Positions 16,099 to 64,000 of a stretch of DNA of 64,000 nt are shown piece by piece; within the stretch, counting starts at the first letter, position 1; each line of letters opens with the position of its first letter. The DNA comes from a virus, in IMG/VR virus record IMGVR_UViG_3300045988_160639. One strand, given 5' to 3'. The notes below the pieces were generated by a model. The model searched no databases and was not told the DNA's origin. It worked only from the letters and a program-made list of their open reading frames with translations. A program made the position numbers and the translations under genes.

Positions 16099-16138
16099 TT
16101 ATATAAATATAATACTTCTAAATGAAAGGATAATCACT

Positions 16139-16981: not shown

Positions 16982-16995
16982 AAGGAATGATATAA

Positions 16996-17550: not shown

Positions 17551-17552
17551 TA

Positions 17553-17807
17553 ATGGTGTTGCAGATAGGTAAATACAAGGTCAGCGATGACCTCAAGACA
17601 AAGCAGAAAGAAAATCCCATACTTGCAAAAGATGTTGCGACAGCTTTATATGCTCATATAACTGGAATGTGGGCTGAAAATGCAGCCGGACATTATGAGC
17701 AGGCGAAGAACGGTGAGAGAGTAACAGCTATATTTCCTACTGTCTGCGGAAATATCGTCATTGATACCCTTGCAGATCGTACACAAACAACAATTTCAAT
17801 GGAATAG
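17553..17807 (+). CDS. Hypothetical protein (ends in TAG)
   Basis: ORF follows a TGATAATG junction. Confidence 0.4.
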   Translation: MVLQIGKYKVSDDLKTKQKENPILAKDVATALYAHITGMWAENAAGHYEQAKNGERVTAIFPTVCGNIVIDTLADRTQTTISME

Positions 17808-17817
17808 GGATGTATGT

Positions 17818-18249: not shown

Positions 18250-18263
18250 TGGAGGAAAATCAA

Positions 18264-18644
18264 ATGAATATGTATGATGAAATACTCAACAAATACGCTC
18301 AGTTTCTCGGATATGATGGGAAGGTAAAAGCAGACGAAAAGTATCTGCTCAGTGAGAGAGATAAGCTCGAAAGACTTATTAGGCTTAATGATGAACTTGA
18401 CTCGATAGATAAACATAGCAAGGCAAAGAATTATGGCAGGACAATTTTGGCTTGTTATGAAAGTAACTTTGCATATAAATCCGAAGGTGAACCTGCTTGT
18501 CAAGAACCAGACCCTGAAATGATAATTTTTAAGATTTGTTATGCTAAAAAAGTTCCTTGTATTTGTTTTGAAATTGATGTCAGGGGCAATACATATAGAG
18601 AAATAACCTTTAAAGAAGTAACAGATATTCTGCATCTGAGGTAA
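18264..18644 (+). CDS. Hypothetical protein
   Basis: SD GGAGG 8 nt upstream of the ATG at 18264. Confidence 0.45.
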   Translation: MNMYDEILNKYAQFLGYDGKVKADEKYLLSERDKLERLIRLNDELDSIDKHSKAKNYGRTILACYESNFAYKSEGEPACQEPDPEMIIFKICYAKKVPCICFEIDVRGNTYREITFKEVTDILHLR

Positions 18645-18648
18645 TACT

Positions 18649-18825
18649 ATGGATATAAGGAAGTTTCTTACAATGCTAACGGATAATGGCTTCACATTTC
18701 TCCGAAACGGCAGCGGAAGTCATCAAATATGGATAAATGCCAATGGGAATGTTTTCTCGTTCCTATACGGCAAGTCCGTATATAAGGGAATTGTGTGGCA
18801 ATTCAGACGAAGATTTTGTAAATGA
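18649..18825 (+). CDS. HicA-like toxin (58 aa, below the track cutoff)
   Basis: RKFLTMLTDNGFTFLRNGSGSHQIW matches the YcfA/HicA N-terminal signature, including GSH. Confidence 0.5.
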   Translation: MDIRKFLTMLTDNGFTFLRNGSGSHQIWINANGNVFSFLYGKSVYKGIVWQFRRRFCK

Positions 18826-18844
18826 CACGAAAGGATTGATGAAA

Positions 18845-19264
18845 ATGAGTATAGAAGGTATAAAAAATCAGTTGTCCCAATGTTTTAAAAACGGAAAAAT
18901 CGAATTTCTCACATTTATAGATGGTAGTAAAGTCAAACGCATATACACAAATATAAAAGATATTGATACCGACACCAGCGAAGAAACTCATCTCAATATC
19001 ACACCTCACAAAGAGAAGGTGGAATTTGAATTGATGAAAGGTAATAATATAGTATATATTATAGAAGATACATATGATAATATCCTTGGAATAGCCTTTA
19101 CACAGTGGTTCAAGCCAATTTTAAGAAATATTGTCAAAGATAAATACGAACTGGAAGGGAAGATAAGATCCGATGAATTAACAGGAACAGATTATTGTCA
19201 GATCAGAGAAGACGGAATATTGCTTTTTAACAATCTCTCTGAAATAATAGAATTTGCAATTTAG
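18845..19264 (+). CDS. Hypothetical protein in the hicB position, with no recognisable HicB motifs
   Basis: ATG 20 nt after the HicA-like stop; ends in TAG. Confidence 0.45.
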   Translation: MSIEGIKNQLSQCFKNGKIEFLTFIDGSKVKRIYTNIKDIDTDTSEETHLNITPHKEKVEFELMKGNNIVYIIEDTYDNILGIAFTQWFKPILRNIVKDKYELEGKIRSDELTGTDYCQIREDGILLFNNLSEIIEFAI

Positions 19265-19369
19265 ACACAAAATATAGTATAAATAAAAATATGTAAATGA
19301 TAAAATATAGATAATAAAACGTAGAACAACGGATTTACTGCTAATCTGAATGAAAGGAGAAAATAAAAA

Positions 19370-19795
19370 ATGATTGCTAATAGCTCAACTGATTTTAGAC
19401 ATTATGATAATAAGTATCATTCAACTGTGATGGAATATCACCGTGGCGATATTGTCTGGGTCGATTTTGGAAATACGGTCGGCTCAGAACAAGGTGATAT
19501 CCGTCCAGCCGTAATAATACAAAATGAAGTAGGAAATAAACACTCACCATGCCTTATAGTGGCTATCATGACCAGTAAGGAGAAAAAGCCAATGGTAACG
19601 CACGTAAGTATAAATCCATCTGTAGAGACCGGATTAACAAAGCCTACTACTGTAATGACAGAACAGATAAGAACTATTGATAAGAGCCGAGTTCTGAGCT
19701 GGGCAGGAAAGCTTGGTGAAAGAATGATGACTTGTATTGATAGAGCCATCGCTGCAAGCTTTGGTCTGGAAAATAATTCTGCGTATTCTGTATAA
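19370..19795 (+). CDS. MazF/PemK-family endoribonuclease toxin with no adjacent antitoxin ORF
   Basis: GDIVWVDFGNTVGSEQGDIRPAVIIQN...TVMTEQIRTIDKSR. Confidence 0.8.
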   Translation: MIANSSTDFRHYDNKYHSTVMEYHRGDIVWVDFGNTVGSEQGDIRPAVIIQNEVGNKHSPCLIVAIMTSKEKKPMVTHVSINPSVETGLTKPTTVMTEQIRTIDKSRVLSWAGKLGERMMTCIDRAIAASFGLENNSAYSV

Positions 19796-19801
19796 TTTAT
19801 C

Positions 19802-19830
19802 TTGACAAATCAGAAAGAAGATGATAAAAT
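19802..19830 (+). promoter_or_regulatory. Promoter TTGACA-N17-TAAAAT with an extended -10
   Basis: Hexamers at 19802-19807 and 19825-19830. Confidence 0.6.
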
Positions 19831-19860
19831 TGATTTAGTGAATATAGAAAGGACGATTAT

Positions 19861-20832
19861 ATGGTACCATACTTTGAAGAATATTGTCAGCATATTATTG
19901 AAAAGAATCCCAGTTTTGGTAATTACGCACTGAGGATATCGTGTTTAAACAAAGTAGAGAAAAATATATTTGATATGTCAGCCGAGGAAATTGCTGATGC
20001 TGTAGAAGCTGATAAAAAGAAAATTACTACTTTAAATGCTTTATACGGCGTTTTGTGTGACTATTACAGATGGGTAAATAAGACTTATGATTTATCCATA
20101 AAGGATAGTTTTTACGAAATCAATAGACTTAAAAGTATAGTATCCGATATAAAAACCGAAAGCGGTAAAGATGAATACTTTACTACTTTTTCAGAATTGA
20201 AACAGGCTTTAACTCAGGCAGAAGAGGATTATCTTATTCTGCAAGAATCTGAATTATCCGAAAAAATGTATGAAAGTTTAGTTGTGCGACAAAAGAAATT
20301 CAATGTATTTAATGTATTTCTTTGGGAGCAACTTACAACAGATGATATGATTTCTATTACATTGTCTGATGCAAGGAATATAATCAGTACCAAACAGCTG
20401 ACCGTCAACGGAAAGTCTATTGAACTTTCAGATGAGGAAATTCAGTTTATTGATGACCTGTATTCGGAAATATTAGAATTGCAAGCACAGGATGAGCAAA
20501 ATAGCGTAAAAAGACAGTATAAAAGAAAAACAAAGAATTGGACATATGATAATTTATTTAATTCCGAAAAGAAATCAAGTTTCGTAAATTTAAAGTGGAA
20601 CGCAATGGGGGCATTTATACAGGATGTGCGACTGGAAGCTCCCAATGTTAAAAAAGCAGGTATGTTCAATAAAATGTATCAGTATGAAAGAAAAAATGAT
20701 TATGTCTTTTCTGGAGACATGAATAGTGCAGAAACATATGCTCGGACATTCAATACTTCAGTGACCAAAGCATATCGTATGGTGAGCGAATACAATAAGT
20801 TCAGACAGAGTATTGAGAATGCAGAAAATTAA
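19861..20832 (+). CDS. Hypothetical protein (323 aa)
   Basis: SD AAAGGA; no confident motif. Confidence 0.6.
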   Translation: MVPYFEEYCQHIIEKNPSFGNYALRISCLNKVEKNIFDMSAEEIADAVEADKKKITTLNALYGVLCDYYRWVNKTYDLSIKDSFYEINRLKSIVSDIKTESGKDEYFTTFSELKQALTQAEEDYLILQESELSEKMYESLVVRQKKFNVFNVFLWEQLTTDDMISITLSDARNIISTKQLTVNGKSIELSDEEIQFIDDLYSEILELQAQDEQNSVKRQYKRKTKNWTYDNLFNSEKKSSFVNLKWNAMGAFIQDVRLEAPNVKKAGMFNKMYQYERKNDYVFSGDMNSAETYARTFNTSVTKAYRMVSEYNKFRQSIENAEN

Positions 20833-20988: not shown

Positions 20989-21063
20989 TTGGGATTAGTA
21001 TAATGAGAAGTACATCAGCCTTTGACACTGATAGTTTCGGGGCAGAGCCGAAATCCCAAACCA
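20989..21063 (+). tRNA. tRNA-Gln(UUG)-like with a non-canonical T loop
   Basis: Hand-folded cloverleaf. Acceptor TTGGGAT/ATCCCAA, D stem GTAT/GTAC, anticodon stem TCAGC/ACTGA with one C-A mismatch, loop CTTTGAC, T stem TTCGG/CCGAA, encoded A-CCA. The T loop is GGCAGAG and the D loop has no GG. Confidence 0.55.
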
Positions 21064-21133
21064 AATGTTAGTTTTATTCTGGCATAGCCTCCCTACGGTT
21101 TCTCTGACTTCCGTATAAAAAAGTCAGGAATAA

Positions 21134-21207
21134 GCACCATTAGTTCAATAGTAGAACAAACGACTTTTAATCGTTAAACATCGGGGCAGAACCGATATGG
21201 TGTACCA
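21134..21207 (+). tRNA. tRNA-Lys(UUU)-like with a non-canonical T loop
   Basis: All four stems pair: GCACCAT/ATGGTGT, GTTC/GAAC, AACGA/TCGTT and ATCGG/CCGAT. Anticodon loop CTTTTAA and encoded A-CCA. The T loop is GGCAGAA and the D loop AATAGTA. Confidence 0.6.
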
Positions 21208-21457
21208 TTGGTGGTTGATTGATACTGTCAAGGTATCTTCAATCTAATACATATTTTGTCTGATGCTCTGCAAAGCTCAGACATACTTATAAAAGATATC
21301 GCAATATTTTTTATAAGTATTTCATTAAAATATGTGTTAAGTGTCTAAACAGCAATAACAAGTCGTATTCTGTTGGCACTAAAAATCGAATATGAGGTTT
21401 CATATTAACAAATAGCGACTTTGAACGGATGAAAAACCTGCTAAGTGGTTTAAATAT

Positions 21458-21534
21458 CTCCCAATAGTCCAATCGGCAGAGACACAGAACTTAAAATTCT
21501 GACAGTGTGGATTCGAGTTCCACTTGGGAGACCA
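21458..21534 (+). tRNA. Class I (short variable arm) tRNA with anticodon UAA, nominally Leu
   Basis: Acceptor CTCCCAA/TTGGGAG, D loop with GG, anticodon stem CAGAA/TTCTG, loop CTTAAAA, variable region ACAGT, T arm GTGGA-TTCGAGT-TCCAC, A73 and encoded CCA. Confidence 0.7.
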
Positions 21535-21692
21535 AATCTGAAATTGGAAAAAACAGCAACATTAGGGTTGTTTGTAGAACAAGAGTAGGCGAGTAGTTCA
21601 CGAAACGAATAGCAACTTTGTGGTTTTAGCGGATGAGGATAACTTTAGAATGAACCGCCCAAAAGCCTGTGAGGATAATCAGGCACTCATCT

Positions 21693-21777
21693 GCTCCTAT
21701 GGTGGAATTGCAAGACACGCTTGACTCAAAATCAAGTACCGAAAGGTGTGACGGTTGGAATCCGTCTGGGAGTACCA
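21693..21777 (+). tRNA. tRNA-Leu(CAA), class II
   Basis: Acceptor GCTCCTA/TGGGAGT, anticodon stem CTTGA/TCAAG, loop CTCAAAA, 13-nt variable arm TACCGAAAGGTGT, T arm GACGG-TTGGAAT-CCGTC, A-CCA. Confidence 0.7.
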
Positions 21778-30843: not shown

Positions 30844-32619
30844 GTGACTTTTGAATATCAAACACGAGGAAGTATTGGAATAGGTAATCCTGTTACAAAA
30901 ATTCTTGAAAATCGGGGAATAAAAAATGTTCCTATGTTTTTAAATCCTACAAAATCCTGTTTAGAGGATAATCACCTGTTAGATAATATTGATTTGTCAG
31001 TTGATATTTTTCTTAAACATATGAATAATAACAGTAAAGTTGTAGTGTTGCAGGATTGTGACTGTGACGGTGTGACTTCCGCAGCTTTAATGATACAGTA
31101 TATAAATGATAATTTTCCGTCAATTTCAGTGGATTATATTATACACGACAATAAAGAACACGGTCTTGATAATAAATCTATGCTTGAGATTGAACCGAAA
31201 AAGCCTGATTTGCTTATTATTCCAGATGCCGGAAGTAATGATTTGAGACAGTTGAAAACATTAAAATCTGTCGGTATTGATGTCATTGTTCTCGATCATC
31301 ACGATGAATCGGAAAAGGTTACACGATTAAAGTCTATATATAGGCTTAATAATCTTAATGATTTCGCAGTGATAGTAAATAATCAGATGTCATCAAAAGT
31401 AAATGACAAGTCAATGACAGGCGTAGGAATAGTCTATAAGTTTTGTTCTGTTGTTGATGAAAGACTAAAGCGTGATACAGTTAATAAATATCTTGATTTG
31501 GTAGCCCTCGGAATGATAGCTGATTCGTGTGATTTGTCACAGTTGCAGACACGATATTTAGTTCTCGAAGGCATTAAACAGATACAAAACGAGACAAATC
31601 ATAATAAATTCATTTCGGAATTAGTCAAGTCTCAGGCTTATTCATTACATAGTAAAGCAACCATTTTAGGTATAAGCTTTTATATTGCACCTCTTGTAAA
31701 TGCTCTGATCCGACTTGGTACAAAAGACGGCAAAGAAATAATGCTTAAAGCATTTCTCAATTCATCGGAAAAAGCGATTGTTAAAATTCGTGGTAAAGGT
31801 GAAATTGAGGTTTCAATTCAGGAACAAGCGAGAAGATTATGCGAAAGTTATAAACGCAAACAGCAGAAAATAACAAGTGATTACACAGAAGTCCTTAAAG
31901 AGCAAATAAATGAATTTGGATTGAACGAATATCCTGTAATCTGTTGTAAAGCCGATAAGTCATTTGAAAAAACATTTACAGGTCTGATTGCAAATAAACT
32001 TACATCTATGTATAATAAGCCGTGTCTGCTTCTGAGAGATTATAATGATATTCTTATGGGAAGTGCAAGGGGATTCGATAAATCTCATATTAAAGACATT
32101 AAGGATTTCTGCTTGCAGACAAAATTGTTTGATTTGGCAGAGGGACATCCTAACGCTTGCGGTGTAACTATTAAAAAGGATAATATTTCAAAGTTTTACG
32201 ATTATCTTTCTCAGCAAAATTTTGATAATACTTTAAATTATACCGTGGATGCAGTTTTTGACGAAAAATCACTCACCGCAGAGGTAATTCAGTCAATTTT
32301 TGCACTTTCTGACGTTTGGGGAACAAATATTGAAGAACCTCTATTTTTATTAAAATTGAAATGCCCTACTGATGGGGGTTTCACGGTGCTTGGAAATGAA
32401 AAAAACACAATAAAATTGACATTTCATAATATTGAGATTATTAAGTTTCGTTCCTCTGAAAATGAGTACAATGAGATAAAAACTCTTGGTAAAATGGTTG
32501 AATTTACAATAGTGGGCAAGTTTTCAGTCAATGAATATAACGGAAAGAAAACTCCACAGGTCATAGTGGAAAACTGGATGTATAAACCTTGTACCGAAAA
32601 GCCTAAATTCAGATTTTAA
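30844..32619 (+). CDS. RecJ-like DHH/DHHA1 phosphoesterase (ssDNA exonuclease)
   Basis: DCDCDGVTS, IPDAGSND, VLDHHD and GHPNACG motifs. Confidence 0.75.
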   Translation: MTFEYQTRGSIGIGNPVTKILENRGIKNVPMFLNPTKSCLEDNHLLDNIDLSVDIFLKHMNNNSKVVVLQDCDCDGVTSAALMIQYINDNFPSISVDYIIHDNKEHGLDNKSMLEIEPKKPDLLIIPDAGSNDLRQLKTLKSVGIDVIVLDHHDESEKVTRLKSIYRLNNLNDFAVIVNNQMSSKVNDKSMTGVGIVYKFCSVVDERLKRDTVNKYLDLVALGMIADSCDLSQLQTRYLVLEGIKQIQNETNHNKFISELVKSQAYSLHSKATILGISFYIAPLVNALIRLGTKDGKEIMLKAFLNSSEKAIVKIRGKGEIEVSIQEQARRLCESYKRKQQKITSDYTEVLKEQINEFGLNEYPVICCKADKSFEKTFTGLIANKLTSMYNKPCLLLRDYNDILMGSARGFDKSHIKDIKDFCLQTKLFDLAEGHPNACGVTIKKDNISKFYDYLSQQNFDNTLNYTVDAVFDEKSLTAEVIQSIFALSDVWGTNIEEPLFLLKLKCPTDGGFTVLGNEKNTIKLTFHNIEIIKFRSSENEYNEIKTLGKMVEFTIVGKFSVNEYNGKKTPQVIVENWMYKPCTEKPKFRF

Positions 32620-32631
32620 GGAAGTGATAAA

Positions 32632-35181
32632 GTGGATTACAATATCTTTGGTTACGATTTTGAAGTTTTTAAGTACGATTGGCTTGTTGTATTTGTTAAT
32701 AAGAATACATCTGAAAGAACAGTAATCGTTAATGACAGACAAGCTTTAAAGGATTTTTATAATACGAATAAAGACGCTATTTTTGTAGGATATAATTCAA
32801 GAAATTACGACCAGTTCGTTTTTAAAGGCATCTCGTGTAATATGAATCCAGCAATTATCAATGAAGAATTGATTGTTAAAGGGAAATCGGGCTATCAGAT
32901 TGTGAAAAAAGCAAAGGACATTCCTTTTAATAATTATGATGTTTCGGATATTCAGCATAGTTTAAAGCAGCTTGAAGCTTTTATGGGTCACGATATTAAA
33001 GAGTCGGAGGTTGATTTTACAATAGATAGACCTCTGACACAAGCCGAAATCGAAGAAACAATTAAGTATTGTACTCACGATGTAACGGAGTGTTTGGCTG
33101 TTCTCGATTATAAAATCGGTGATTTCGATGCTCAATTTAGTCTAATTGAAGCATTTGATTTACCTTTTGAGATGTTTAATAAGACTAAAGCACAGCTTTC
33201 AGCTCATATTCTCGGTGCAGTAAAACAGCACACAATGGACGATGAATTTGAATTTACAATTCCTCCGACTTTAAAATTGGGCAAAAAGTATCAGTTTGTA
33301 GTCGATTGGTTTAAAAATCCTGTGAATAAAGCTTATAAGACGGCAACTTATTCATATGAAAATCAGCACAAACGTGAATTAGATTGTATGATAGCAGGTG
33401 TTCCTCATATTTTTGCTTATGGTGGAGTACATGGTGCTATCCCTAACTATCACGCAAAAGGAATAATATTGTGCCTGGATGTTGCCAGCCTTTATCCGTC
33501 AATTATGATTGAATATGGTTATCTCAGCCGTAAACTCAAGAATCCTCAAAAGTACAAAGAGATTCGAGACGAAAGACTTAGACTTAAAAAGTTAAAGGAT
33601 AAACGTCAGCAACCTATGAAAATCGTACTTAATTCCACATATGGAATACTCAAAGATAAAAATAATCCACTTTATGACCCTCTTATGAGCAATAACGTTT
33701 GTGTTACAGGTCAACTTTTGCTTCTTGATTTGATTGAAAAGGTAGAGCCGTATTGTCAGTTGATTCAAAGTAATACAGATGGTATCTATATGCTTGTTAA
33801 AGATATGGAGACAGTAAAAATAATTGAAGATATTGCTCACGAATGGGAGACAAGAACAAGGCTCTCGCTCGAATTTGATATTTACAATGAGATTTATCAA
33901 AAAGATGTAAATAACTATATCATCATCTCCGAAGACGGACATTATAAATCAAAAGGAGCTTATCTTAAAAAACTAAGTCCCATTGATAATGACTTGCCTA
34001 TAATCAATACTGCTTTGATTGAATATTTTGTACATCAAACTCCTATTGCAGATACAATAAATAAATCGAATAAGTTGATTGATTTTCAAAAGGTTGTCAA
34101 GCTCACAAGTCTTTATAAGGGTGTTGTTTATGGAGAATGTGTTACAGAAACAATAGATGGTAAGTCAAAAGTTGTTGTTAAAAATGGAGAACATCTCAGA
34201 GAAAAAGTGCATAGAGTATTTGCCTCAACCAATCCTCACGCAAAAGCGCTGTATAAAACTAAAACAGAAAAGGGGGAACAGGTTTATGAAAAGATAGCTT
34301 ATACTCCTGACCATTGTTTTATCAATAACGATAATATCTTAGATGTTCCTGTCCCCGAAGAACTTGACCGTCAATATTATATCAATATGGCAACTGATAG
34401 ATTGAATCAGTTTCTTGAAGTCACTGAGGAAAAACACGATGTCATTCCAGAAATTTTGTATGATAATATGCTCAAAACAAATAATTTTTATGAATTTCTG
34501 GAATTATGCACACAGACCTTGCCTATTAAAATCAGCAATAAGATATTTACTAATTACATAATTGCTGATTGCTGTTTTAAATACGGTAAAACAAAGCATT
34601 TACTTGATTTTATCAAATGGTTTGACTTATTGTATGGAAAAGACAAATTAACAGTAAAACAGGCAGAAACTAAATTTGATAATGTTAAATCTATAATTGA
34701 TAAATATTCAGAACTAAGTGCAACAGGTAAAACTCTTATTATAGACAGCAAGAAAATCTTAATTGAACTATTTGATAATATTCCAGATGAAGATTTATAT
34801 TTACCTGAAATATTGGAGATGCAGATAAAACTATTTGAAAATTTAAGATATGTAAATTCAGAAATGAATGAAAATTACTATTATGTTCTCAATACCAGAA
34901 ATGAAATAAAGCCCAATTTAATAATTTATCAGCTTAGTACGGGTAATATTCTTAATGTTAAAGTTGATAAACAGATGTTTGATATTCTCTTTATACAAGA
35001 TGGTGACATCGTTCAAGTCAATAAATCTGAGTATAGATATGGAGTTAAAATCATCGGTAAAGACGAAGACGGAGTAAACATCACCGATGCAGATTATAAT
35101 AAGCAGTATTTATACTTGCTTGGATATGATATTCTGTACAGAGATTACTCAAAGTCCAATAAATCATTGGTGGAGGAATAA
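32632..35181 (+). CDS. Family B DNA polymerase with 3'-5' exonuclease
   Basis: Exo motifs FGYDFEVF, GYNSRNYDQ and YCTHDV; Pol motifs DVASLYPSIM, KIVLNSTYG and SNTDGIYM. Confidence 0.85.
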   Translation: MDYNIFGYDFEVFKYDWLVVFVNKNTSERTVIVNDRQALKDFYNTNKDAIFVGYNSRNYDQFVFKGISCNMNPAIINEELIVKGKSGYQIVKKAKDIPFNNYDVSDIQHSLKQLEAFMGHDIKESEVDFTIDRPLTQAEIEETIKYCTHDVTECLAVLDYKIGDFDAQFSLIEAFDLPFEMFNKTKAQLSAHILGAVKQHTMDDEFEFTIPPTLKLGKKYQFVVDWFKNPVNKAYKTATYSYENQHKRELDCMIAGVPHIFAYGGVHGAIPNYHAKGIILCLDVASLYPSIMIEYGYLSRKLKNPQKYKEIRDERLRLKKLKDKRQQPMKIVLNSTYGILKDKNNPLYDPLMSNNVCVTGQLLLLDLIEKVEPYCQLIQSNTDGIYMLVKDMETVKIIEDIAHEWETRTRLSLEFDIYNEIYQKDVNNYIIISEDGHYKSKGAYLKKLSPIDNDLPIINTALIEYFVHQTPIADTINKSNKLIDFQKVVKLTSLYKGVVYGECVTETIDGKSKVVVKNGEHLREKVHRVFASTNPHAKALYKTKTEKGEQVYEKIAYTPDHCFINNDNILDVPVPEELDRQYYINMATDRLNQFLEVTEEKHDVIPEILYDNMLKTNNFYEFLELCTQTLPIKISNKIFTNYIIADCCFKYGKTKHLLDFIKWFDLLYGKDKLTVKQAETKFDNVKSIIDKYSELSATGKTLIIDSKKILIELFDNIPDEDLYLPEILEMQIKLFENLRYVNSEMNENYYYVLNTRNEIKPNLIIYQLSTGNILNVKVDKQMFDILFIQDGDIVQVNKSEYRYGVKIIGKDEDGVNITDADYNKQYLYLLGYDILYRDYSKSNKSLVEE

Positions 35182-37540: not shown

Positions 37541-37646
37541 GATGACTAACGTATTCAAGATATTCAATCAGCTCCAGTCAACAAGCAAAAAATTTGAAAA
37601 GATTGAAATTCTGAAAGCTAATGAAAGAAACATTTTATCGTTTTAA
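37533..37646 (+). pseudogene. 37-aa relic of a DNA ligase 5' end
   Basis: MTNVFKIFNQLQSTSKKFEKIEILKANE compared with MNNVFKIFNQLQSTSKKNEKITILKVNE, the ligase N-terminus at 38695. Confidence 0.6.
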
Positions 37647-37662
37647 AAGAGGAGAACTGCAA

Positions 37663-38679
37663 ATGAATAACAATACTTCAACTACGAATTTACCACAAAT
37701 GTTATGTATAAAAACAGATAAAGGTTGTTTTATATCTGATTGTCTTACTGTAAATGGTTACGATTATGAGTATCATAGAACTGAAATTGATAATCTTCTG
37801 TTTGATGGTAAAAAAGCTGTAGGAGCGCATTGTAAGAATTGGTATTACATTGATAAATATCCAACACTTATCCAAAGAAAAGAATCAGGAGAGAGTATCA
37901 ATAGAAGATATGAGATTAAAAATGAATCTTTGATCTCAGATAGCCTACCAGCTGTTATTCCTTATGAAGAAGCCGAAAATTATGATAGTGATGTTGTTGA
38001 TGCTTTATATTTTTATAAGTGGGATCAAGAGCCACCACATTTAAAAGAAATAATTTATGATATTCAAGTAATTTGTGAGATAGAAAATTATAACTTCCCT
38101 CCTAAAATTGAATATAAGGGCTTTCATCATAATCGCAGTAGTTGCTCTGACGAGCGATATATTATTACAAATGCAAATGTTCAGCATCAAATGTTAGACA
38201 AAATAATATTTCCAGAAGTAACACTTCATGAATATCCTTGCAAATTTACATCTAAGCAAATGTACGATATTACAAGACAGTACATTATTGAACACATTGA
38301 TAATTCGGTTGCAAAAATTACTTCCAACTACGATTTTTGTTTTGAAGTAAGAAAAATTATACCAATGATTGAACCTGAAACCGTTACATATACAAATATT
38401 TTTGCAAAAACTAAACGTGAAAGAAATAAGATACATACAGTTATAAAAGAATACGATGAAAAGAAAATTTTTTCTATGACACATAAAAATGAACAATATA
38501 AAGGTTATCCTATTATACCCGAGATGTGTGCAAACAACGAAGCTGAGTTAAAAGAAAAAGTTGATATGTGGTTAGAAAACTTAATCAAACTGATTAATGA
38601 ACCTTTATACCAGTGTCCGCAATGTAAGGGTCTTGGTTATGTTAATAACGTTTCTGAGATTGGTTTTGATTATGAATGA
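37663..38679 (+). CDS. Hypothetical protein (inserted cassette), C-terminal CPQCKGLG
   Basis: SD GAGGAG precedes the ATG at 37663. The gene lies between the ligase relic and the intact ligase. Confidence 0.55.
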   Translation: MNNNTSTTNLPQMLCIKTDKGCFISDCLTVNGYDYEYHRTEIDNLLFDGKKAVGAHCKNWYYIDKYPTLIQRKESGESINRRYEIKNESLISDSLPAVIPYEEAENYDSDVVDALYFYKWDQEPPHLKEIIYDIQVICEIENYNFPPKIEYKGFHHNRSSCSDERYIITNANVQHQMLDKIIFPEVTLHEYPCKFTSKQMYDITRQYIIEHIDNSVAKITSNYDFCFEVRKIIPMIEPETVTYTNIFAKTKRERNKIHTVIKEYDEKKIFSMTHKNEQYKGYPIIPEMCANNEAELKEKVDMWLENLIKLINEPLYQCPQCKGLGYVNNVSEIGFDYE

Positions 38680-51260: not shown

Positions 51261-51502
51261 AAATTCATAAATGTGACCTGTGTGGTAAAGACTTCAACAC
51301 TCTTGATGAACAAGAACATTTCGGATTGCATTATAACAATGTTGGTTATGGCAGTATATATGATGGGTGCCACATTGACATAGATATGTGTTGTGATTGT
51401 TTTGATAAAATGATGACTGAATACATAGTGCCAAAGTTAAAGTTTAAGGATTCAGCTATTATGGATTATGAAGATTTTGTTGTAAAACATTATCCAACAT
51501 AA
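51257..51502 (+). CDS. Cys-rich small protein
   Basis: CDLCGK...CCDC; ATGA overlap with the upstream gene. Confidence 0.5.
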   Translation: MKIHKCDLCGKDFNTLDEQEHFGLHYNNVGYGSIYDGCHIDIDMCCDCFDKMMTEYIVPKLKFKDSAIMDYEDFVVKHYPT

Positions 51503-51518
51503 TAATATAGCATAATGA

Positions 51519-51534
51519 AAATCCACTTTTATTG
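51519..51534. repeat. Left arm of a perfect 16-bp inverted repeat, AAATCCACTTTTATTG
   Basis: Exact reverse complement of 51812-51827. Confidence 0.9.
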
Positions 51535-51800
51535 GACTTTATATCATCATAAAGTTCTTTAGTCATATGTATGTTAAGTGGATTCCAACCTTGCTGAAGT
51601 GCTTGCCAAAAGGCGATTAAGTATTCATTACTGTCATTTGCTTGTTTATTCTCACACTTAATTTTATCAATTACGTTACAACCACCAGCAAAAGGCTCAA
51701 TATATGTTGTGATGTTATTATTATCTATATACTTCTGGATAATCGGTACAATGTCCTTTGCTATACGGCTTTTACTTCCCATATACTTAATTTCAATCAT
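51535..51800 (-). CDS. N-terminal segment of a Dam (D12-class) N6-adenine methyltransferase, inverted relative to the rest of the gene
   Basis: YMGSKSRIAKDIVP...YIEPFAGGCNV (SAM motif I). The frame runs through the repeat into a nonsense tail. Confidence 0.75.
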
Positions 51801-51811
51801 CTCCTTTTATA

Positions 51812-51827
51812 CAATAAAAGTGGATTT
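51812..51827. repeat. Right arm of the inverted repeat, CAATAAAAGTGGATTT
   Basis: Exact reverse complement of 51519-51534. Confidence 0.9.
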
Positions 51828-52265
51828 CTAAAACAGGAGGTTGCTTTAGCAGGATTGTGTGCCACATATAACGCTAAATGGTTTGGTGGATATGCTGGAA
51901 TAGTACATACAAAAATAGGCACAAAGCGTAATTATTATGATGAAGCAGTAAGAAACGTACTCAAACAAGTGCCTATGCTTAAAGACGTAACGTTTACTTG
52001 TGGTGATTATCTCAGTATTATACCATACAATGCAGTAGTCTATTGTGATCCACCATATCAGGGAACTACGAAATATAAAGACGAGCTGAATTATGATACA
52101 TATTGGAATTGGGTCAGAGAAATAAGTAAAGATAATATTGTTTTATGTAGCGAATACAACGCTCCATCGGATTTTGAGTGCATATGGAGCAAGGAATTGA
52201 CTACTACATTAAATAATGCAAGCAGAAGCAAGGCGGTTGAAAAATTATTTACATACAAAAATTGA
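51828..52265 (+). CDS. C-terminal two-thirds of the Dam (D12-class) methyltransferase, with no start of its own
   Basis: LAGLCATYNAKWFGGYAG...VVYCDPPYQGT (motif IV DPPY). Confidence 0.75.
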   Translation, partial: LKQEVALAGLCATYNAKWFGGYAGIVHTKIGTKRNYYDEAVRNVLKQVPMLKDVTFTCGDYLSIIPYNAVVYCDPPYQGTTKYKDELNYDTYWNWVREISKDNIVLCSEYNAPSDFECIWSKELTTTLNNASRSKAVEKLFTYKN

Positions 52266-52330
52266 CCCTACAATAAAATTTTTCTTTTGTTAAATTATAA
52301 GTAAATAATAAAAAACGCATTAAAAATCAC

Positions 52331-52358
52331 TTGACAGAATTTCTCAAAGTGGTATAAT
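52331..52358 (+). promoter_or_regulatory. Promoter TTGACA-N16-TATAAT, preceded by the dispersed motif at 52293-52314
   Basis: Hexamers at 52331-52336 and 52353-52358; context nearly identical to the promoter at 40012. Confidence 0.6.
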
Positions 52359-54990: not shown

Positions 54991-55523
54991 TTATAGGTGT
55001 TGACTGTGATAATGTCCTAAACAATCTCACCGAGAGCGTTCTTAAAGTCTATAACGAAGACTATAATGACAATCTTACACCAGATGATATTACTGATTAC
55101 TACATCGAAAACTTTGTTAAGCCTGAGTGTAAAGATAATTTCTATAAGCTTTTCACTGATAAAAGAGTATGGAAAGGAATTTCTGTAATTGACGGCTGTG
55201 TAGATGTGCTTAAAAAGTGGAACGATTTAGGTCATACAATTTATATTGTAACATCTACCGAGCCTGCAAATATGCTTAAAAAGGCTAATTGGTTGCAGAG
55301 AATACTTCCATTTCTGAATATTCGCAAGAGACTTATTTGTATTCAGAAGAAACAGCTGCTCAGTGAAATAGATGTTCTTATTGATGATTGTTATGATAAT
55401 CTCATAGGTGGTAAATACAGTAAGATTGTACTTGACTATCCTTGGAATAGAAATCATGATGATGAAGAACATTCTGTATGCAGATGTAAAGACTGGTCTG
55501 AGATTGAAAGGGTGATTAAATGA
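54987..55523 (+). CDS. 5'(3')-deoxyribonucleotidase (HAD superfamily, NT5C-like)
   Basis: N-terminal IIGVDCDNVLNN (DxDxV) motif. Confidence 0.6.
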   Translation: MIIGVDCDNVLNNLTESVLKVYNEDYNDNLTPDDITDYYIENFVKPECKDNFYKLFTDKRVWKGISVIDGCVDVLKKWNDLGHTIYIVTSTEPANMLKKANWLQRILPFLNIRKRLICIQKKQLLSEIDVLIDDCYDNLIGGKYSKIVLDYPWNRNHDDEEHSVCRCKDWSEIERVIK

Positions 55524-56716
55524 TAGTTATAAAAAGAAATGGGGATAAAGTTCCATTTGACAAGAGTAAGATTTATAATGCTGTGTTGAAAGCTTATGAG
55601 GAAGTTTATCCTAATTATAAGACGAATCAAAAAGATGCTGAAACAATAACTGATTTTGTTTTAAATAAGATACAACTTATGAATGAGATTACTGTTGAAC
55701 AGATACAGGACATTGTTGAAAATGCTCTCATTGAATATGATGGTATAGTTGCAAAGGCTTATATTACATATAGATATAAGAGAATGCTGGCAAGAAAAAT
55801 GAATAATACCGATGATACCATTCTTTCACTCATTGACTGTGCTAACGAAGAAGTTAAAGAAGAAAATTCAAACAAAAACCCTACATTACTTCCTACTCAA
55901 AGAGATTATATGGCTGGCACGGTTTCAAAGGATTTAACAAATAGAGTTCTTCTTCCAGATGATATTGTTAAGGCACATAATGATGGACTTATCCATTTCC
56001 ACGACTCTGACTATTTCGTTCAACATATGTCGAATTGTTGCCTTGTAAATCTTGGTAATATGCTTCAGAACGGCACAGTAATTTCAGGCACAATGATTGA
56101 AAAGCCTCATAGCTTTGCAACTGCTTGTACTATTACAACACAAATTATTGCACAAGTAGCAAGTAATCAGTATGGTGGTCAGAGTATTTCCTTATCAGCT
56201 CTTGCTCCCTTTGTTGATATTTCAAGAAAGAAAATAAGAAAGCAGGTAGAAGATGAGGTTAATCTTGTAAATGGTAAGACAATGGGACTTGATAATTATA
56301 CAATTGATAGGATAGTTGAAAATCGTGTTCTTGATGAGGTTAAACGTGGTGTTCAAACGATTCAGTATCAGATAGTAACTCTTATGACAACAAATGGTCA
56401 GTCCCCATTCGTAACCGTATTTATGTATTTGGGGGAAGTACAGGATAAGCAAACAAAACACGATCTTGCTCTGATTATTGAAGAAGTGCTTAAACAGCGT
56501 TATCAGGGAGTTAAGAATGAAGTAGGCGTTTGGATAACACCTGCTTTTCCGAAACTTATTTATGTCCTTGAAGAAGATAATATCCACGAGAACTCACCTT
56601 ATTATTATCTTACCAAACTTGCTGCAAAGTGTACTGCAAAAAGGCTTGTTCCAGATTACATTAGTGAAAAGGTAATGAAACAGCTTAAAGATGGTCATTG
56701 CTTTACAAGTATGGGT
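55520..56716 (+). CDS. nrdD: Anaerobic ribonucleoside-triphosphate reductase, exon 1
   Basis: ATP-cone N-terminus VIKRNGDKVPFDKSKI; ends ...CFTSMG, immediately before the conserved CRSFL. Confidence 0.85.
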
Positions 56717-57514
56717 TGACTATACAGCTCATATAAAACTCCGTGAACACATATTAAAGTGGTGTACATTTTACGTTTAGGAATCGTAGGAAATGACGAT
56801 TAGAAAATGTGCTGACAGGGAATGTCTTAAAAAAGAAGAATCCTGTGCTAAGACGCATACTTACAAATGCCTATGGGAGGTATTTGTATAGAAGAATACG
56901 ATGGATTTTTAGTAGATGAATACTTTAACATATTTAGCAAGCGAACTGGTAGAAAATTAACACCCTATATCGGAACTGATGGATATATGCACGTTCAATA
57001 TAAAATAGATAAATATAAATCTCATCGTAATAGGGTTCATGTTATTTTGGCTCATTGCTTTATTCCAAATCCAAATGGCTATAAATATGTTAACCATATT
57101 GACAGTAATAAACTTAATAATAGCTTAGAAAATTTAGAATGGTGTACTAATTCATATAACGTTAAACACGGTTGGGATAGTGGAAATAGAACTCATAAAA
57201 ATAATACAAGTGTTTCTGTGTTTGATTTGAAAAATAATTATGTTAATACATATAAATCAATTAGAAAATGTGGTGAATCACTTAATGTTGACAGACATAA
57301 GATAGCCAGAGTTTTAAAAGGCGAATTAAAAGAAGATTATTTAGGCTATTTGTTTAAGTATGCGTAAAGTTAAGAGACTACCGAAAACATAACACAGACA
57401 GTTCTGTGCGAAGAAGCGAGTAGGGTACATTCGAGTTTAATACGAATGGAAGTGCGGAGTATTAACCAACGTAGTGGTTAATAAAGATATAGTCCAGTGG
57501 TCGAAAGACCATTG
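56717..57514 (+). mobile_element. Group I-like intron 1 in nrdD, carrying an HNH homing endonuclease
   Basis: The exon ends in U and the intron ends in G. Joining the exons restores the conserved SMG-CRSFL sequence of class III RNRs. Confidence 0.7.
56867..57367 (+). CDS. HNH homing endonuclease (intron 1 ORF)
   Basis: VNHIDSNKLNNSLENLEWCTNSYNVKHG. Confidence 0.75.
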   Translation: MPMGGICIEEYDGFLVDEYFNIFSKRTGRKLTPYIGTDGYMHVQYKIDKYKSHRNRVHVILAHCFIPNPNGYKYVNHIDSNKLNNSLENLEWCTNSYNVKHGWDSGNRTHKNNTSVSVFDLKNNYVNTYKSIRKCGESLNVDRHKIARVLKGELKEDYLGYLFKYA

Positions 57515-58433
57515 TGCAGAAGCTTTCTTTCTCCTTGGAAAGATGAAAACGGAAATTATAAATTCTATGGCAGATTTAACAAAGGTGTTGTAACAATTAA
57601 CCTTGTTGATGTTGCGCTTACAGCAAAGAAGAATAACCCAAATGATATAATGACAGAATTTTGGAAGATATTTGATGAACGTCTGGAGCTTTGCCATAGA
57701 GCTTTAATTTGTAGATATGAAAGGCTTAAAGGTACACCATCAGATGTTGCGCCTATTCTTTGGCAGTATGGAGCATTAACAAGACTTAAAAAGGGTGAAG
57801 TAATTGATAAATACCTTACAGGTGGTTATTCAAGTATTTCTCTTGGCTATGCAGGTCTTTGGGAATGTGTTTATGCTTTAACTGGTCATAAACTTACCGA
57901 AAAAATAGGTCAGGATATTGGTAAGAAGATAATGCAGTATATGAACGATAAGTGTAACGATTGGAATAAAGACCTTAATCTCGGATTTTCAATTTATGGT
58001 ACACCTCTTGAATCGACAACATATAAGTTTGCCAAGTGTTTACAGAAGCGTTTCGGTATTATAAAGGGTGTAACTGATAAGAATTACATAACCAATAGTT
58101 ATCATATACACGTTACAGAACCTATTGATGCTTTCACAAAGCTTTCTATAGAATCTGAATTTCAGTCTCTTTCAACAGGAGGGGCAATATCTTATGTGGA
58201 GACCTCTAATTTAAGTAACAATATTGAAGCTGTGCTTGAAGTAATCAAGTTTATCTATGACCACATAATGTACGCTGAACTTAATACAAAATCTGATTAT
58301 TGTCAGGTGTGCGGATTTGACGGTGAGATACAGGTTATTGAAGATAAAGATACAGGCAAGCTCGTCTGGGAATGTCCTAATTGTGGTAATAGAGACGAAA
58401 AGAAGCTTAATGTTGCGAGAAGAACTTGTGGAT
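57515..58433 (+). CDS. nrdD: Anaerobic ribonucleotide reductase, exon 2
   Basis: CRSFLSPW...ISLGYAGLWE...GVTDKNYITNSYH...CQVCGF...CPNCG...ARRTCG, collinear with E. coli NrdD as I recall it. Confidence 0.85.
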
Positions 58434-59208
58434 TGAATTGATGTAGTCCACATTAAATAGGTTAAATTGCGGGGAAGTCCCCATAACCCTAATTCACCAC
58501 AACAGAACTGGAAACGGTAAATGTGATGGTGGTATGAATTTTTAATTCAACAGTCCGACAGGATAGAAACCATAAAAAGTAATTAGGATAGGGATAACCG
58601 AGTGTGCAAGTCACTCAAACGCATCGAAACTCCTTAACACATAATGGTGATGGAGGACGTTCAACGACTATAATACCTACTAATAACAAATAAAATTGCT
58701 AATAAAATTTATAAAAATAGAGGAAGAAATAATATAGAAGATATTAAACCTATACCTGATTTTAAAGGATATTATATAAGCAATGCTGGCAAAGTATATT
58801 GTAATCTTGGGAAAGGAAATAGAAATAAAAACAATACAGTTGACTTATATGAGATAAAACCAAGATTAACAAATGAGGGATATGCGAGAATATATGCTCG
58901 TCAAACATCAACTGATAAAAGAAAAGATTTATATATACATAGGTTAGTTGCACAAATGTTTATTGATAATCCCGATAATAAAAAATATGTAAATCATATT
59001 AATTGTGTTAGAAATGATAATAGAGTTGAAAACCTTGAATGGTGTACAGCTAAAGAAAATACATATCAAACAGAAAGATTAAAGCATGTAATACGAGACG
59101 ATACTGGTAAGTTTATTAGCAATTTTTCTTATCCAGCATAAAGACAAAAAGTTATTAGATTGTATAGTCTACTCCCTTTTAAATATTACGAAAGTAAGGG
59201 TATAAAGG
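58434..59208 (+). mobile_element. Group I-like intron 2 in nrdD, carrying an HNH/NUMOD4-type endonuclease
   Basis: The exon ends GGA-T and the intron ends in G. Joining the exons gives RRTCG-YIGSNFWNQG, the glycyl-radical motif. Confidence 0.7.
58674..59141 (+). CDS. HNH homing endonuclease (intron 2 ORF); conserved N-terminus has no canonical start, possible ATA at 58734
   Basis: IPDFKGYYISNAGKVY (NUMOD4-like) and VNHINCVRNDNRVENLEWCTAKEN (HNH). The first ATG, at 58956, would delete the N-terminal domain. Confidence 0.6.
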   Translation, partial: YLLITNKIANKIYKNRGRNNIEDIKPIPDFKGYYISNAGKVYCNLGKGNRNKNNTVDLYEIKPRLTNEGYARIYARQTSTDKRKDLYIHRLVAQMFIDNPDNKKYVNHINCVRNDNRVENLEWCTAKENTYQTERLKHVIRDDTGKFISNFSYPA

Positions 59209-62170: not shown

Positions 62171-62414
62171 TATGAACAATACAATTCTTCCAAATCTTGT
62201 TTTTACCGTTGCTGAAGTGGCTTCAATATTAAAAATAAATAAAAATGCAGTATATGATTTAATCAACAATGGCATTCTCAAAAGTATTAAATTAGGTAGC
62301 TGTAAAATAACAGCTAAATCATTAAATGATTTTTTAGAGGCTTATGACGGTTATGATTTAAGTGATTTAACTGATATTAAGCTTCTTCATCAATATAAAA
62401 TAGCAAATAACTAA
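62160..62414 (+). CDS. xis: Excisionase / MerR-type HTH DNA-binding protein
   Basis: FTVAEVASILKINKNAVYDLINNGILKSIKLG; lies next to the integrase. Confidence 0.7.
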   Translation: MVSNMNNTILPNLVFTVAEVASILKINKNAVYDLINNGILKSIKLGSCKITAKSLNDFLEAYDGYDLSDLTDIKLLHQYKIANN

Positions 62415-62471
62415 AAATATCCCGCTCAATAATATGATTTATTTCATACTATTTGAGCGGGATATTTTTAG
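62411..62471. terminator. Bidirectional terminator (19-bp perfect stem)
   Basis: CTAAAAATATCCCGCTCAA pairs with TTGAGCGGGATATTTTTAG. Confidence 0.75.
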
Positions 62472-63638
62472 TTATTTTAGAATATTATCCATAATATTTG
62501 CAACTTCTTCATCCATTTTATCAGTGATATGGGTGTAATATCTAAGAGTGGTTTCTAATTTACTATGCCCTAAGCGCTTCTGTACGTACTTAGGATTTAC
62601 ACCCGATTCAGCCAACATAGTGGTATGAGTGTGTCTAAGATTATGATACTTGAAGTCTATATTGAGGTCGTCTTTAAATATGCGTCTCATAAACTTAATG
62701 CTATTTGGAGTAAGCATTTCTCCGTTTGGCTTAACATTTATAAAGTCATCAACGATAATTCTTTGCGTTTTGTCATTTCTTCTATCGGTAACAAAATTTA
62801 TAGCATATCCATCGCCGTATTCTTGTTTATTTTTTTCATGCTGTGCTTGTAGCTCTTTGAGGTAATTGGTAAATTCATCACCCATTTTTATAGTTCTTAC
62901 ACTACTTACTGTTTTGGGTGGTATAAAAGACCATTGTTTATCTTGAAAATATAATTGCTTGTTTATTCGTATAGTCTTTTTATTCCAATCAATATCAGAA
63001 AATCTTAATCCAAAACATTCACTAACTCTAAGACCAAGGTTAATTCCTATTTTAAAGGCTGGAGTTAAATTTGTTGTAGCACATCTTTGTTCCATTAACT
63101 CTAATTCTTTTTTAGTGTAAGTTTGTATTTCACCGTATGCACGATAACTTGCTGGTGGGACAACTCCGATAGTAGGATTGGTTCTGATGTACTTCCTTTT
63201 AACAGCATACCTAAATAATACAAGTAAAAAATTGTAAATACTTCTAATGTATTCGTCACTCAGATTTTCGCTTCTTTTACTATTAATATATTCTTGTAAT
63301 TTTTGTGCCGAAAAATTACCAATATAGTTGTAACCTATTTCATTACATATATGATTTCTATATAAAGAATTATATCTTGTAACGGTTGAATGCTTACGGG
63401 TGGTATTAGCTTCATTATCGATAAATTCCTGATAAACCTCATTAAGAGTTATCTTTTTGTTCTCGACAATCTCACCATTGTTATTATACTCGTCTATATA
63501 CTTGGCTAACATAGCTTGAGCTTCTTTTTCAGTAGCAAAACCACTACGTTCAATTTGTTTACGTTTTCCATTCTCTTGTTTGCCCAGATCAAGACGGAAA
63601 GACCAAGTAGCTCCTTTTTTTCTTACGCTGCCTTTCAT
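62472..63638 (-). CDS. int: Tyrosine integrase
   Basis: HNLRHTHTTMLAESG...LGHSKLETTLRYYTH. Confidence 0.9.
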   Translation of the reverse strand: MKGSVRKKGATWSFRLDLGKQENGKRKQIERSGFATEKEAQAMLAKYIDEYNNNGEIVENKKITLNEVYQEFIDNEANTTRKHSTVTRYNSLYRNHICNEIGYNYIGNFSAQKLQEYINSKRSENLSDEYIRSIYNFLLVLFRYAVKRKYIRTNPTIGVVPPASYRAYGEIQTYTKKELELMEQRCATTNLTPAFKIGINLGLRVSECFGLRFSDIDWNKKTIRINKQLYFQDKQWSFIPPKTVSSVRTIKMGDEFTNYLKELQAQHEKNKQEYGDGYAINFVTDRRNDKTQRIIVDDFINVKPNGEMLTPNSIKFMRRIFKDDLNIDFKYHNLRHTHTTMLAESGVNPKYVQKRLGHSKLETTLRYYTHITDKMDEEVANIMDNILK

Positions 63639-63702
63639 TTATATCACCTCAATATCTATTATACAATTCTTGTTTATATATGTCAATACGAAAAAATTGA
63701 GT

Positions 63703-63822
63703 TTCCCACCAATCTATTATAAATATTAGATATTTCGGCTTAAATACGTTGTTTGCAAGATGTTTGTGGGAAAAGACAAAAAGTATCACTGCTACACATC
63801 AAATTCCCACCATATTCCCACA
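63703..63822. repeat. Four TTCCCAC(C/A) repeats (63703, 63764 inverted, 63804, 63815), candidate integrase arm-type sites
   Basis: Read directly from the sequence, immediately upstream of int. Confidence 0.5.
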
Positions 63823-63832
63823 AAACAAAAAA

Positions 63833-63870
63833 ATATGGTATAAGATGTTTTGATACATCTCATACCATAT
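63833..63870. repeat. 16-bp inverted repeat with one mismatch (ATATGGTATAAGATGT / ACATCTCATACCATAT)
   Basis: Read directly from the sequence. It could be a terminator or a core-type site. Confidence 0.5.
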
Positions 63871-64000
63871 AATTACTATAGTGCAAAGAACTGTGCATAT
63901 TGCCCTGTACATGGGCGTATCTATTTGTATATATTTGTATTTTATTTTACTTGAAGTAACGGTTGAGGAGACCCTGGAATGCCTTGCCGTGTCTTGCCTC

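Follow-up and report, generated by a model that had tools for sequence, protein, structure and literature searches.

We analysed a 64,000-nt stretch of viral DNA (IMG/VR record IMGVR_UViG_3300045988_160639), referred to here in its full length as the window, in which a gene for a Dam-type DNA methyltransferase is split by an inversion at 51459-52265. The locus is very probably a recombinase-driven, reversible ON/OFF inverton that would switch an orphan Dam-type methylase of a temperate phage and thereby give mixed methylation states. Its boundaries are a perfect 16-bp inverted repeat (IR-L and IR-R) with 277 nt between the arms. The whole switch is thus 309 bp long (2 x 16-bp repeats plus 277 bp) and bears the ribosome-binding site (RBS), the start codon, and codons 1-94 of the gene, 89 of which are in the unique segment and five in the repeat. 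The features of the locus, given with the open reading frames (ORFs) and the coding sequence (CDS) they belong to, are as follows.

51519-51534, no strand: left inverted repeat IR-L, AAATCCACTTTTATTG, in the 5' untranslated region (UTR), 17 nt past the stop codon of an upstream 81-aa gene.
51535-51811 (277 bp), minus strand: invertible segment, here in the OFF orientation, with GGAG at 51801-51804, ATG at 51798-51800, codons 1-89, and the S-adenosylmethionine (SAM)-binding motif I, EPFAGGCNV.
51812-51827, no strand: right inverted repeat IR-R, CAATAAAAGTGGATTT, within the CDS, encoding N-K-S-G-F (residues 90-94).
51828-52265, plus strand: 3' part of the methyltransferase gene (residues 95-239), with the target-recognition region and motif IV, DPPY, and without a start of its own in the OFF state.
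51459-51800, minus strand: ORF of the OFF product, truncated at 113 aa, consisting of 94 authentic residues and a 19-residue tail from the antisense of the upstream gene.
52331-52358, plus strand: consensus sigma-70 promoter just 3' of the methyltransferase gene, TTGACA and TATAAT with a 16-nt spacer and a TG element, 12/12 matches.

A first-pass annotation, made from the letters of the window, had placed the first 94 codons on the minus strand and the rest on the plus strand from 51828, with a perfect 16-bp inverted repeat at the breakpoints, and all of this agreed with the ORF coordinates and repeat positions. The minus-strand ORF running from 51800 down to 51459 starts with MIEIKYMGSKSRIAKDIVP, passes through EPFAGGCNV and DIKSNKSGF, and ends in a 19-aa nonsense tail, so that the sequenced orientation encodes a truncated 113-aa product, as had been proposed. 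From 51828 the plus strand reads LKQEVALAGLCATYNAKWFGG...CDPPYQGT...KN*, with the stop at 52265. In this OFF orientation the SAM-binding half is directed away from the catalytic half. When 51535-51811 was flipped in silico, the predicted in-frame fusion was obtained as a single 239-aa ORF, with AAAGGAG immediately preceding the ATG and with the gene co-oriented with the upstream operon. At the sequence level, therefore, the orientation sets whether a 239-aa ORF (ON) or a 113-aa fragment (OFF) is available. Two parts of the annotation needed qualification. The reading of N-K-S-G-F in both arms was correct, but it follows automatically from the identity of the repeat and is not independent evidence. 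Similarly, one arm does lie inside the CDS, but the left arm is in the 5' UTR, which in current nomenclature makes this a 'partial intergenic' inverton and not a strictly intragenic one.

The repeat is rare in its surroundings. It is one of just three perfect inverted repeats of at least 15 nt with arms no more than 5 kb apart in the 64 kb, and the 16-mer had no further match in the window at up to one mismatch; shuffled sequence gave 0.25 matches at up to two mismatches. At up to three mismatches, four further sites were present in the window against 2.7 expected, none of them paired and none close to either of the two recombinase genes of the window or to the attachment (att) junction. An Rfam search of the region matched no family. 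A search for promoters or terminators inside the invertible segment gave nothing exceeding the level in shuffled sequence, with 13 promoter-like sites in the region compared with 11 after shuffling. Because the sigma-70 promoter follows the gene, flipping should leave the downstream genes unaffected, and these are probably independent of the state of the switch.

The rebuilt ORF matched the Pfam model PF02086 (D12 N6-adenine methyltransferase) with E=1.6e-18 and 67.8 bits against a cut-off of 22, and the PHROG 56 family 'DNA methyltransferase' at 1.9e-38. The NCBIfam 'dam' subfamily model gave 61 bits against a cut-off of 115, which places the protein in the D12 family but not among Dam equivalogs. 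Its motifs occur in the order EPFAGGCNV (residues 35-43, SAM motif I) and CDPPYQ (residues 167-172, motif IV), and F37, G39, G40, D168, P169, P170, and Y171 are invariant in 69 homologues. In the window these two motifs sit on opposite strands, and since the break parts SAM motif I from DPPY, the OFF state cannot yield an active enzyme from one polypeptide. Searching a large protein collection resulted in 7197 homologues, the nearest full-length one with 94% identity, and 227 GenBank phage records showed collinear matches to DNA adenine methylases that span 80% or more of the query (98-100% for the 25 listed). No close relative was found among GenBank phages, in which the best DNA match was 71% over 184 bp, and a sequence search of the PDB returned no significant match. 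An AlphaFold model of the 94%-identical ON allele (P0001) had a mean predicted local distance difference test score (pLDDT) of 88.3 and a predicted template modelling score (pTM) of 0.86, and its top Foldseek matches in the PDB were Mcbe1, E. coli Dam, DpnM, and T4 Dam (E 5e-10 to 1e-6, TM ~0.6). On the grounds of sequence and model, the rebuilt ON form is predicted to be a canonical D12/Dam-type N6-adenine methyltransferase.

Both orientations were recovered from public assemblies. The exact 239-aa ON protein was present in 19 index blocks, and the exact 113-aa OFF fragment in 182 index blocks and in 98 contigs of the cluster table. Ten ON loci (L043-L052) were matched by the window on both flanks, with 51519-51827 aligning in reverse at 100% identity. 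The edges of these alignments coincide with the inner ends of the repeats, as the left one stops at 51534 and the right one begins at 51812. The best case was a 286,767-bp contig in the ON state (L044). To the left of the inversion, 8838 bp of it matched the window at 99.977%, and to the right, 10454 bp did so at 99.962%; the agreement weakens at its far left end, where identity drops to 95% over the first 759 bp and ~390 bp were unaligned. Two other ON loci (L045 and L047) likewise carry the inverted 51519-51827 between long matches, and the ON state occurs on several distinct flank haplotypes. Comparison with related elements, which the first-pass annotation had suggested, thus found near-identical phage genomes whose only structural difference is inversion of 51519-51827.

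The same was seen for other alleles. Thirty-two fully spanning loci were compared, representing eight alleles, of which two were sampled in both states. In one case, two ON loci (L017 and L019) had no mismatches to a group of OFF loci (L009-L015) in the segment and the 3' part. A further pair, L002 (ON) and L024 (OFF), was identical in the segment; it comes from a separate comparison, as L024 ends too soon past the right repeat to belong to the 32-locus set. In total, three alleles were found in both states, the allele of the window included. Given identical alleles in both states and only a few substitutions per 19 kb, flipping would appear to proceed at a rate well above that of point mutation. 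A circular SPAdes contig of 136,129 bp (38x, 55-nt terminal overlap) was linearised exactly at the first base of IR-R, which is the branch point expected in the assembly graph if both orientations were present, hinting that the two coexisted within one sample. Among the longest contigs listed, ON and OFF contigs shared no samples, a result that is uninformative. The repeat pattern had no exact match in 185,579 species-representative genomes, and no isolate lysogen was found. The invertible ON/OFF switch of the first-pass annotation is therefore strongly supported, as the exact ON and OFF sequences are both public and three alleles have two states; relatives carry both orientations with intact halves, and not a single orientation with decay.

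The alleles also bear on whether the gene is maintained. When rebuilt and counted from the annotated start, all eight give an unbroken ORF of 239 codons or more, even those seen only in the OFF state, and no frameshift or stop codon was found in any of the eight. In each half, synonymous differences are ~1.2 to 4.6 times as numerous as nonsynonymous ones, with ratios of 23:5 and 28:11 for the two halves of the most distant allele. About 19% of coding positions vary among the alleles, and just 5% of 16-nt stretches show no variation. IR-L and IR-R are perfect in 32/32 fully spanning loci across the eight alleles, and in every other locus that reaches them. As IR-R was part of most search patterns and IR-L was absent from most, only the invariance of IR-L counts as independent evidence. 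These patterns suggest that selection is still acting on the methylase gene and that neither half has decayed, and because both repeats stay perfect in both states, the inversion is reversible in principle.

The switch sits in a hypervariable methyltransferase island, in which the same flanking genes enclose zero to several methylases (D12, N6_N4, MT-A70, C5) in relatives. The NKSGF peptide is confined to a cluster of at least 90% identity; the family consensus at that position is NKDKYP, and in the model of the 94%-identical allele the position forms a turn between two helices. In L058, the nearest homologue that is not invertible (81% identity), IR-L is retained but 8/16 positions differ at the site of IR-R, indicating that the right repeat is derived. 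The inverton may accordingly have arisen when an inverted copy of an older junction motif evolved inside the CDS, with the surface turn NKDKY being recoded to NKSGF so as to copy the motif already present upstream. The 16-nt left motif occurs as a single copy just 5' of the RBS of differing cassettes in related phages, which comprise other D12 methylases, N6_N4 methylase operons, and unknown genes, and it is often preceded by AyAATGA. It marks the exact point of a mosaic joint between eight different upstream contexts and eight different downstream cassettes (L165, L058, L158, L209, L194, L168, L213, and L169). In prophages that lack a cassette (L054, L056, L057, L261, L262, L264, and L268), AAATCCACTTTTATT is fused to AAATTATAAG (window 52292), and this junction, equivalent to window 51534-52291, lies inside a CTTTT(A/G)TT microhomology. 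The island methylases may themselves be mosaics: a 247-aa D12 methylase in L263 (2858-3601) has a first ~48 residues almost as in the invertible segment, followed by total divergence.

Several other explanations of the motif were considered and rejected. An integron-like model, with the motif at every cassette boundary, is contradicted by the relatives: those without the inverton have only one copy of the motif, and in two that encode the recombinase no copy lies within 4 kb. A leader peptide (ATGAAAATCCAC..., translated as MKIHFY...) was rejected as the reason for motif conservation, as three upstream contexts have no ATG and the frame is not conserved. A possible second inverton at the start of PolB, where a 13-nt perfect inverted repeat (32617-32639 and 33663-33685) shares AAAGTGGATT with the methylase repeat, was rejected as probably due to chance, since the native arrangement was found in 7/7 relatives recovered.

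The inversion is probably carried out by a site-specific recombinase that exchanges strands within the repeat. The first-pass annotation had named two tyrosine recombinases of the window as possible catalysts.

16139-16981, plus strand: 280-aa tyrosine recombinase, candidate invertase, in an early operon and adjoining a ParB-like gene.
62472-63638, minus strand: prophage integrase with an arm-binding domain (PF00589, PF14657, PF14659), at the prophage-host junction.

The family assignment held, as both belong to the Phage_integrase family of Pfam; that one of them does the flipping remains a hypothesis. The 280-aa enzyme of the phage is the best candidate for the invertase, an assignment that we put forward tentatively and at somewhat less than even odds. 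It matched PF00589 with an E value of 3.5e-14 (53.4 bits against a cut-off of 27.1) and the PHROG 'integrase' family at 2e-27, and its residues R81, H211, R214, H240, and Y250 are invariant in eight homologues of 76-99% identity. Its scores are far under the cut-offs of the models for Xer, integron-integrase, and FimB/E-type invertases. The gene is found on the same contigs as the inverton. Together with the bases upstream, the motif can be written as CAATGAAA-ATCCAC-TTTTATTG, two 8-bp arms around an asymmetric 6-bp spacer in which the arms CAATGAAA / CAATAAAA are symmetric at 7/8 positions; by our own reading this arm-spacer-arm layout resembles the core sites of tyrosine recombinases. The window holds no second target with the same repeat, which weakens the assignment. 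The integrase is a less likely invertase, and no IR-like sequence was found near its gene or the att junction. The enzyme could also come from the host or from another part of the phage. Serine recombinases were absent from Pfam scans of the ~54 ORFs of at least 100 aa in the window and from the precomputed annotations of related loci (covering the right 10 kb of the window and 10 kb past its left end), and no recombinase of any kind was seen in L251 at 11062-20358, which corresponds to the 10 kb to the left of the window.

The genes around the 280-aa recombinase form a group of their own. Three GmrSD_N/DUF262-type proteins and a DUF6551 ParB-like protein are encoded at 8788-9321, 9910-10923, 13436-14794, and 15406-16098 (plus strand), and the DUF6551 ParB-like gene lies immediately 5' of the recombinase gene in the early operon beside the CI/ImmA region. 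The ParB-like/recombinase pair looks like a partition-resolution module in an integrating phage.

A number of observations weigh against a programmed, recombinase-driven switch. No recombinase adjoins the inverton, the candidate being 35 kb away beside a ParB-like gene, a neighbour that suggests multimer resolution as its main job. The 280-aa recombinase also occurs in relatives without the inverton, with a single motif, or with no motif within 4 kb, so that its distribution does not specifically track that of the switch. At the right-hand site, the outer arm matches the putative recombinase-binding arm poorly. The OFF state predominates ~10:1, with ~90% of the contigs of the window allele being OFF, figures that reflect consensus contigs only. 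Lastly, the RBS touches the ATG with zero spacing, which is unusual, and the true start may be a Met or Val at codon 7.

A first rival explanation is that the inversions are real but unprogrammed, being rare illegitimate or template-switch events at a chance 16-bp repeat that leave stable lineages through which an OFF null allele spreads. We regard this as distinctly unlikely. It would account for the predominance of OFF and for the lack of a dedicated or adjacent invertase, and it agrees with a methylase that is dispensable, as the whole cassette is missing in relatives, and with a left repeat that pre-exists as a single-copy motif unrelated to inversion. It sits poorly with at least three alleles that have two states with zero substitutions over ~700 bp and 99.97% identity over 19 kb, and with OFF-only alleles that are undecayed and have fewer nonsynonymous than synonymous changes (dN<dS). 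The perfection of both repeats in the 32 fully spanning loci also argues against it, and the right repeat would have needed ~8 coordinated substitutions in a coding turn. Furthermore, 16 bp falls under the length that RecA requires for efficient recombination.

Less probable still is that the inversion switches something other than the intact methylase, whether through split halves that reassemble, a function of the 113-aa fragment, or orientation-dependent transcription of neighbours. Split DNA methyltransferases exist, and gene callers predict a 136-aa C-terminal fragment (P0124) from a TTG start, with AGGAGG just past the right repeat. That TTG is 14 nt from the AGGAGG, however, and the N-terminal half in the OFF state is antisense to all neighbouring genes. 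The tails of the OFF fragments differ wholly between flank contexts, leaving no conserved alternative product. With regard to transcription, promoter-like sites are no more common than in shuffled sequence, as given above, and the perfect promoter past the gene insulates those downstream. Finally, the idea that the OFF arrangement arose through misassembly or sequencing error, or that it is a pseudogene decaying in one genome, is effectively refuted: inverted repeats can mislead assemblers and the window alone could not settle the matter, but identical OFF junctions recur in 182 blocks and identical ON junctions in 19, from many samples and from SPAdes, MEGAHIT, Logan, and scaffolded assemblies, de Bruijn assemblers use k-mers longer than the 16-bp repeat, and no allele has a frameshift or stop codon.

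The element that carries the switch is probably a large prophage of Huintestinicola butyrica of ~130 kb. The window covers its right half, and related viral contigs are 120-136 kb long. Across the junction from integrase to host, the final 600 bases of the window (63401-64000) show 100% identity to L053 and L055, and a host aminotransferase gene at this flank has 99% identity to that of Huintestinicola butyrica. Within the window the element encodes the following modules.

Immunity: a CI-like repressor and an ImmA-type peptidase.
Partition and recombination: ParB/GmrSD_N-like proteins and the 280-aa tyrosine recombinase.
Toxin: MazF, of the MazF/PemK type, at 19370-19795, plus strand.
Replication: DnaB, RecJ, PolB, RecD2, and DNA and RNA ligases.
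Anti-defence: a homologue of Gad1 (anti-Gabija) at 37621-38679, plus strand, among the replication genes (Pfam E=1e-55).
DNA modification: a C5 methylase.
Nucleotide metabolism: Thy1, NT5C, a split NrdD, and a dUTPase.
Integration: an excisionase-like helix-turn-helix protein and the integrase.

Additional features were noted in this prophage and its relatives. The nrdD gene (55520-58441) is split into parts of 399 aa and 314 aa by an HNH/NUMOD homing-endonuclease ORF at 56867-57367, and the nrdD of relatives (L004, L045, and L053) holds a LAGLIDADG intein (in a 959-aa NrdD) or a GIY-YIG ORF instead, so that three different mobile elements have invaded one gene. In the early region, where small ORFs abound, there are two Pistol ribozymes (2834-2905 and 6982-7056, plus strand; 67.5 and 55.6 bits against a gathering score of 34.5) and a Twister-P5 ribozyme (3307-3383, plus strand; 39.6 bits against 37.6). 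A four-tRNA cluster was identified by Rfam at 20989-21774 (plus strand), in which ARAGORN calls two tRNA-Leu. The stretch of L251 that extends to the left of the window (11062-20358) encodes a Bro-N protein, an N6_N4 methylase, ClpP, and PhoH, and an 891-aa ORF of L251 has a weak match to an RNA-dependent RNA polymerase (RdRP) family, possibly representing a YonO-type RNA polymerase. A bidirectional terminator probably lies at 62405-62477, where the excisionase-like gene and the 3' end of the integrase gene flank a perfect inverted repeat of 25 nt (loop of 23 nt).

Short palindromes are strongly depleted in the window. Observed versus expected counts were 0/20 for CGCG, 1/38 for GGCC, 5/70 for CTAG, 36/169 for CATG, 44/176 for GATC, and 16/56 for CCGG, and GAATTC does not occur at all. 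Avoidance of this strength is a signature of heavy Type II restriction pressure. Under a programmed switch of the methylase, flipping would leave some phage genomes or lysogens with this methylation and others without it, a mixture that could hedge against both the restriction of unmethylated DNA and restriction that depends on methylation; alternatively, the benefit could be a varied epigenetic effect on the lysogen. Such bet-hedging, if it occurs, would fit the restriction pressure suggested by the palindrome avoidance, the several methylases, and the anti-Gabija gene. A more elaborate version, in which the 16-bp motif is the site of the ParB-linked tyrosine recombinase and serves both as a cassette-exchange joint between phages and as a stochastic methylase switch for epigenetic bet-hedging against both types of restriction, is conceivable but improbable as a whole.

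Invertible DNA is familiar from several systems. The temperate phages Mu (G segment, Gin) and P1 (C segment, Cin) carry invertible segments that switch the host range of the tail fibres by means of serine invertases encoded beside the segment, 26-bp sites, and an enhancer. The locus described here shares with them a temperate phage in which an invertible segment would give a heterogeneous population, but no serine recombinase was found in the scanned ORFs and the target is a DNA-modification gene. In phasevarions, Type III mod and other bacterial methyltransferase genes are switched by slipped-strand mispairing in simple-sequence repeats; stochastic ON/OFF switching of a DNA methyltransferase would be common to both, whereas the present mechanism is inversion and the gene is borne by a phage. 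Promoter invertons of the fimS type are flipped by tyrosine recombinases (FimB/FimE, and RecV in Clostridioides difficile), and RecV can act on distant sites. They resemble the phage switch in having an element of ~300 bp with short inverted repeats and, as a candidate here, a tyrosine recombinase. They differ in that they invert a promoter or terminator-forming leader and no CDS, while promoter-like sites in the phage locus are at the shuffled level.

Gene-altering programmed inversions, including partial intergenic and intragenic invertons, are established (Milman et al. 2023, PMC9881135; Chanin et al. 2024, 10.1101/2023.03.11.532203). As in the phage locus, these comprise a pair of short repeats with one arm outside and one inside a CDS, the protein is altered, and both orientations coexist in natural populations. 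The validated cases of these surveys mostly swap C-terminal or specificity modules, as in shufflons, and strictly intragenic invertons recode or truncate a gene (PMC9881135; 10.1101/2023.03.11.532203), whereas here the RBS and start are flipped away in a plain ON/OFF switch that has no alternative module and is prophage-borne. The words methyltransferase and methylase are absent from the text of the preprint by Chanin et al. (10.1101/2023.03.11.532203). Inversions that change methyltransferase genotypes have been described for Type I, II, and III systems of gut and other host-associated bacteria, in which such epigenetic invertons are enriched (Huang et al. 2020, PMC7672463; Ni et al. 2025, PMC11741434). 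These likewise alter the methyltransferase genotype of a clonal population, but they mainly involve shuffling of Type I hsdS or chromosomal Type I/II/III restriction-modification loci, usually with an adjacent invertase and a switch of specificity. The phage switch instead concerns an orphan Dam-class enzyme with no restriction partner and no adjacent invertase, of which the activity is predicted to be switched. A full-text literature search found no report of an orphan Dam-class methylase on a phage that is turned ON/OFF through inversion of the 5' end of its gene. What is new here is thus the application of the known principle of invertons and phase-variable methyltransferases to a phage-borne orphan Dam-like enzyme.

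Phase variation of methylation is a known bacterial strategy, and phage methylases are usually regarded as constitutive anti-restriction tools. The locus offers a tractable case, as identical alleles can already be found in both states among hundreds of public gut metagenomes, the genus of the host has been brought into culture, and the switch is only 309 bp long. It would also illustrate a route to the birth of an inverton, in which the surface turn of an enzyme is recoded so that it copies a motif located upstream. As the OFF state is annotated as two fragments and makes up ~90% of the consensus contigs of this allele, such genes would be systematically missed or called pseudogenes. If the switch operates as proposed, a temperate phage would diversify its own epigenetic state and possibly that of its host, with relevance to host range, to the evasion of both restriction and methylation-dependent defence, and to methylation-based linking of phages to hosts in metagenomes.

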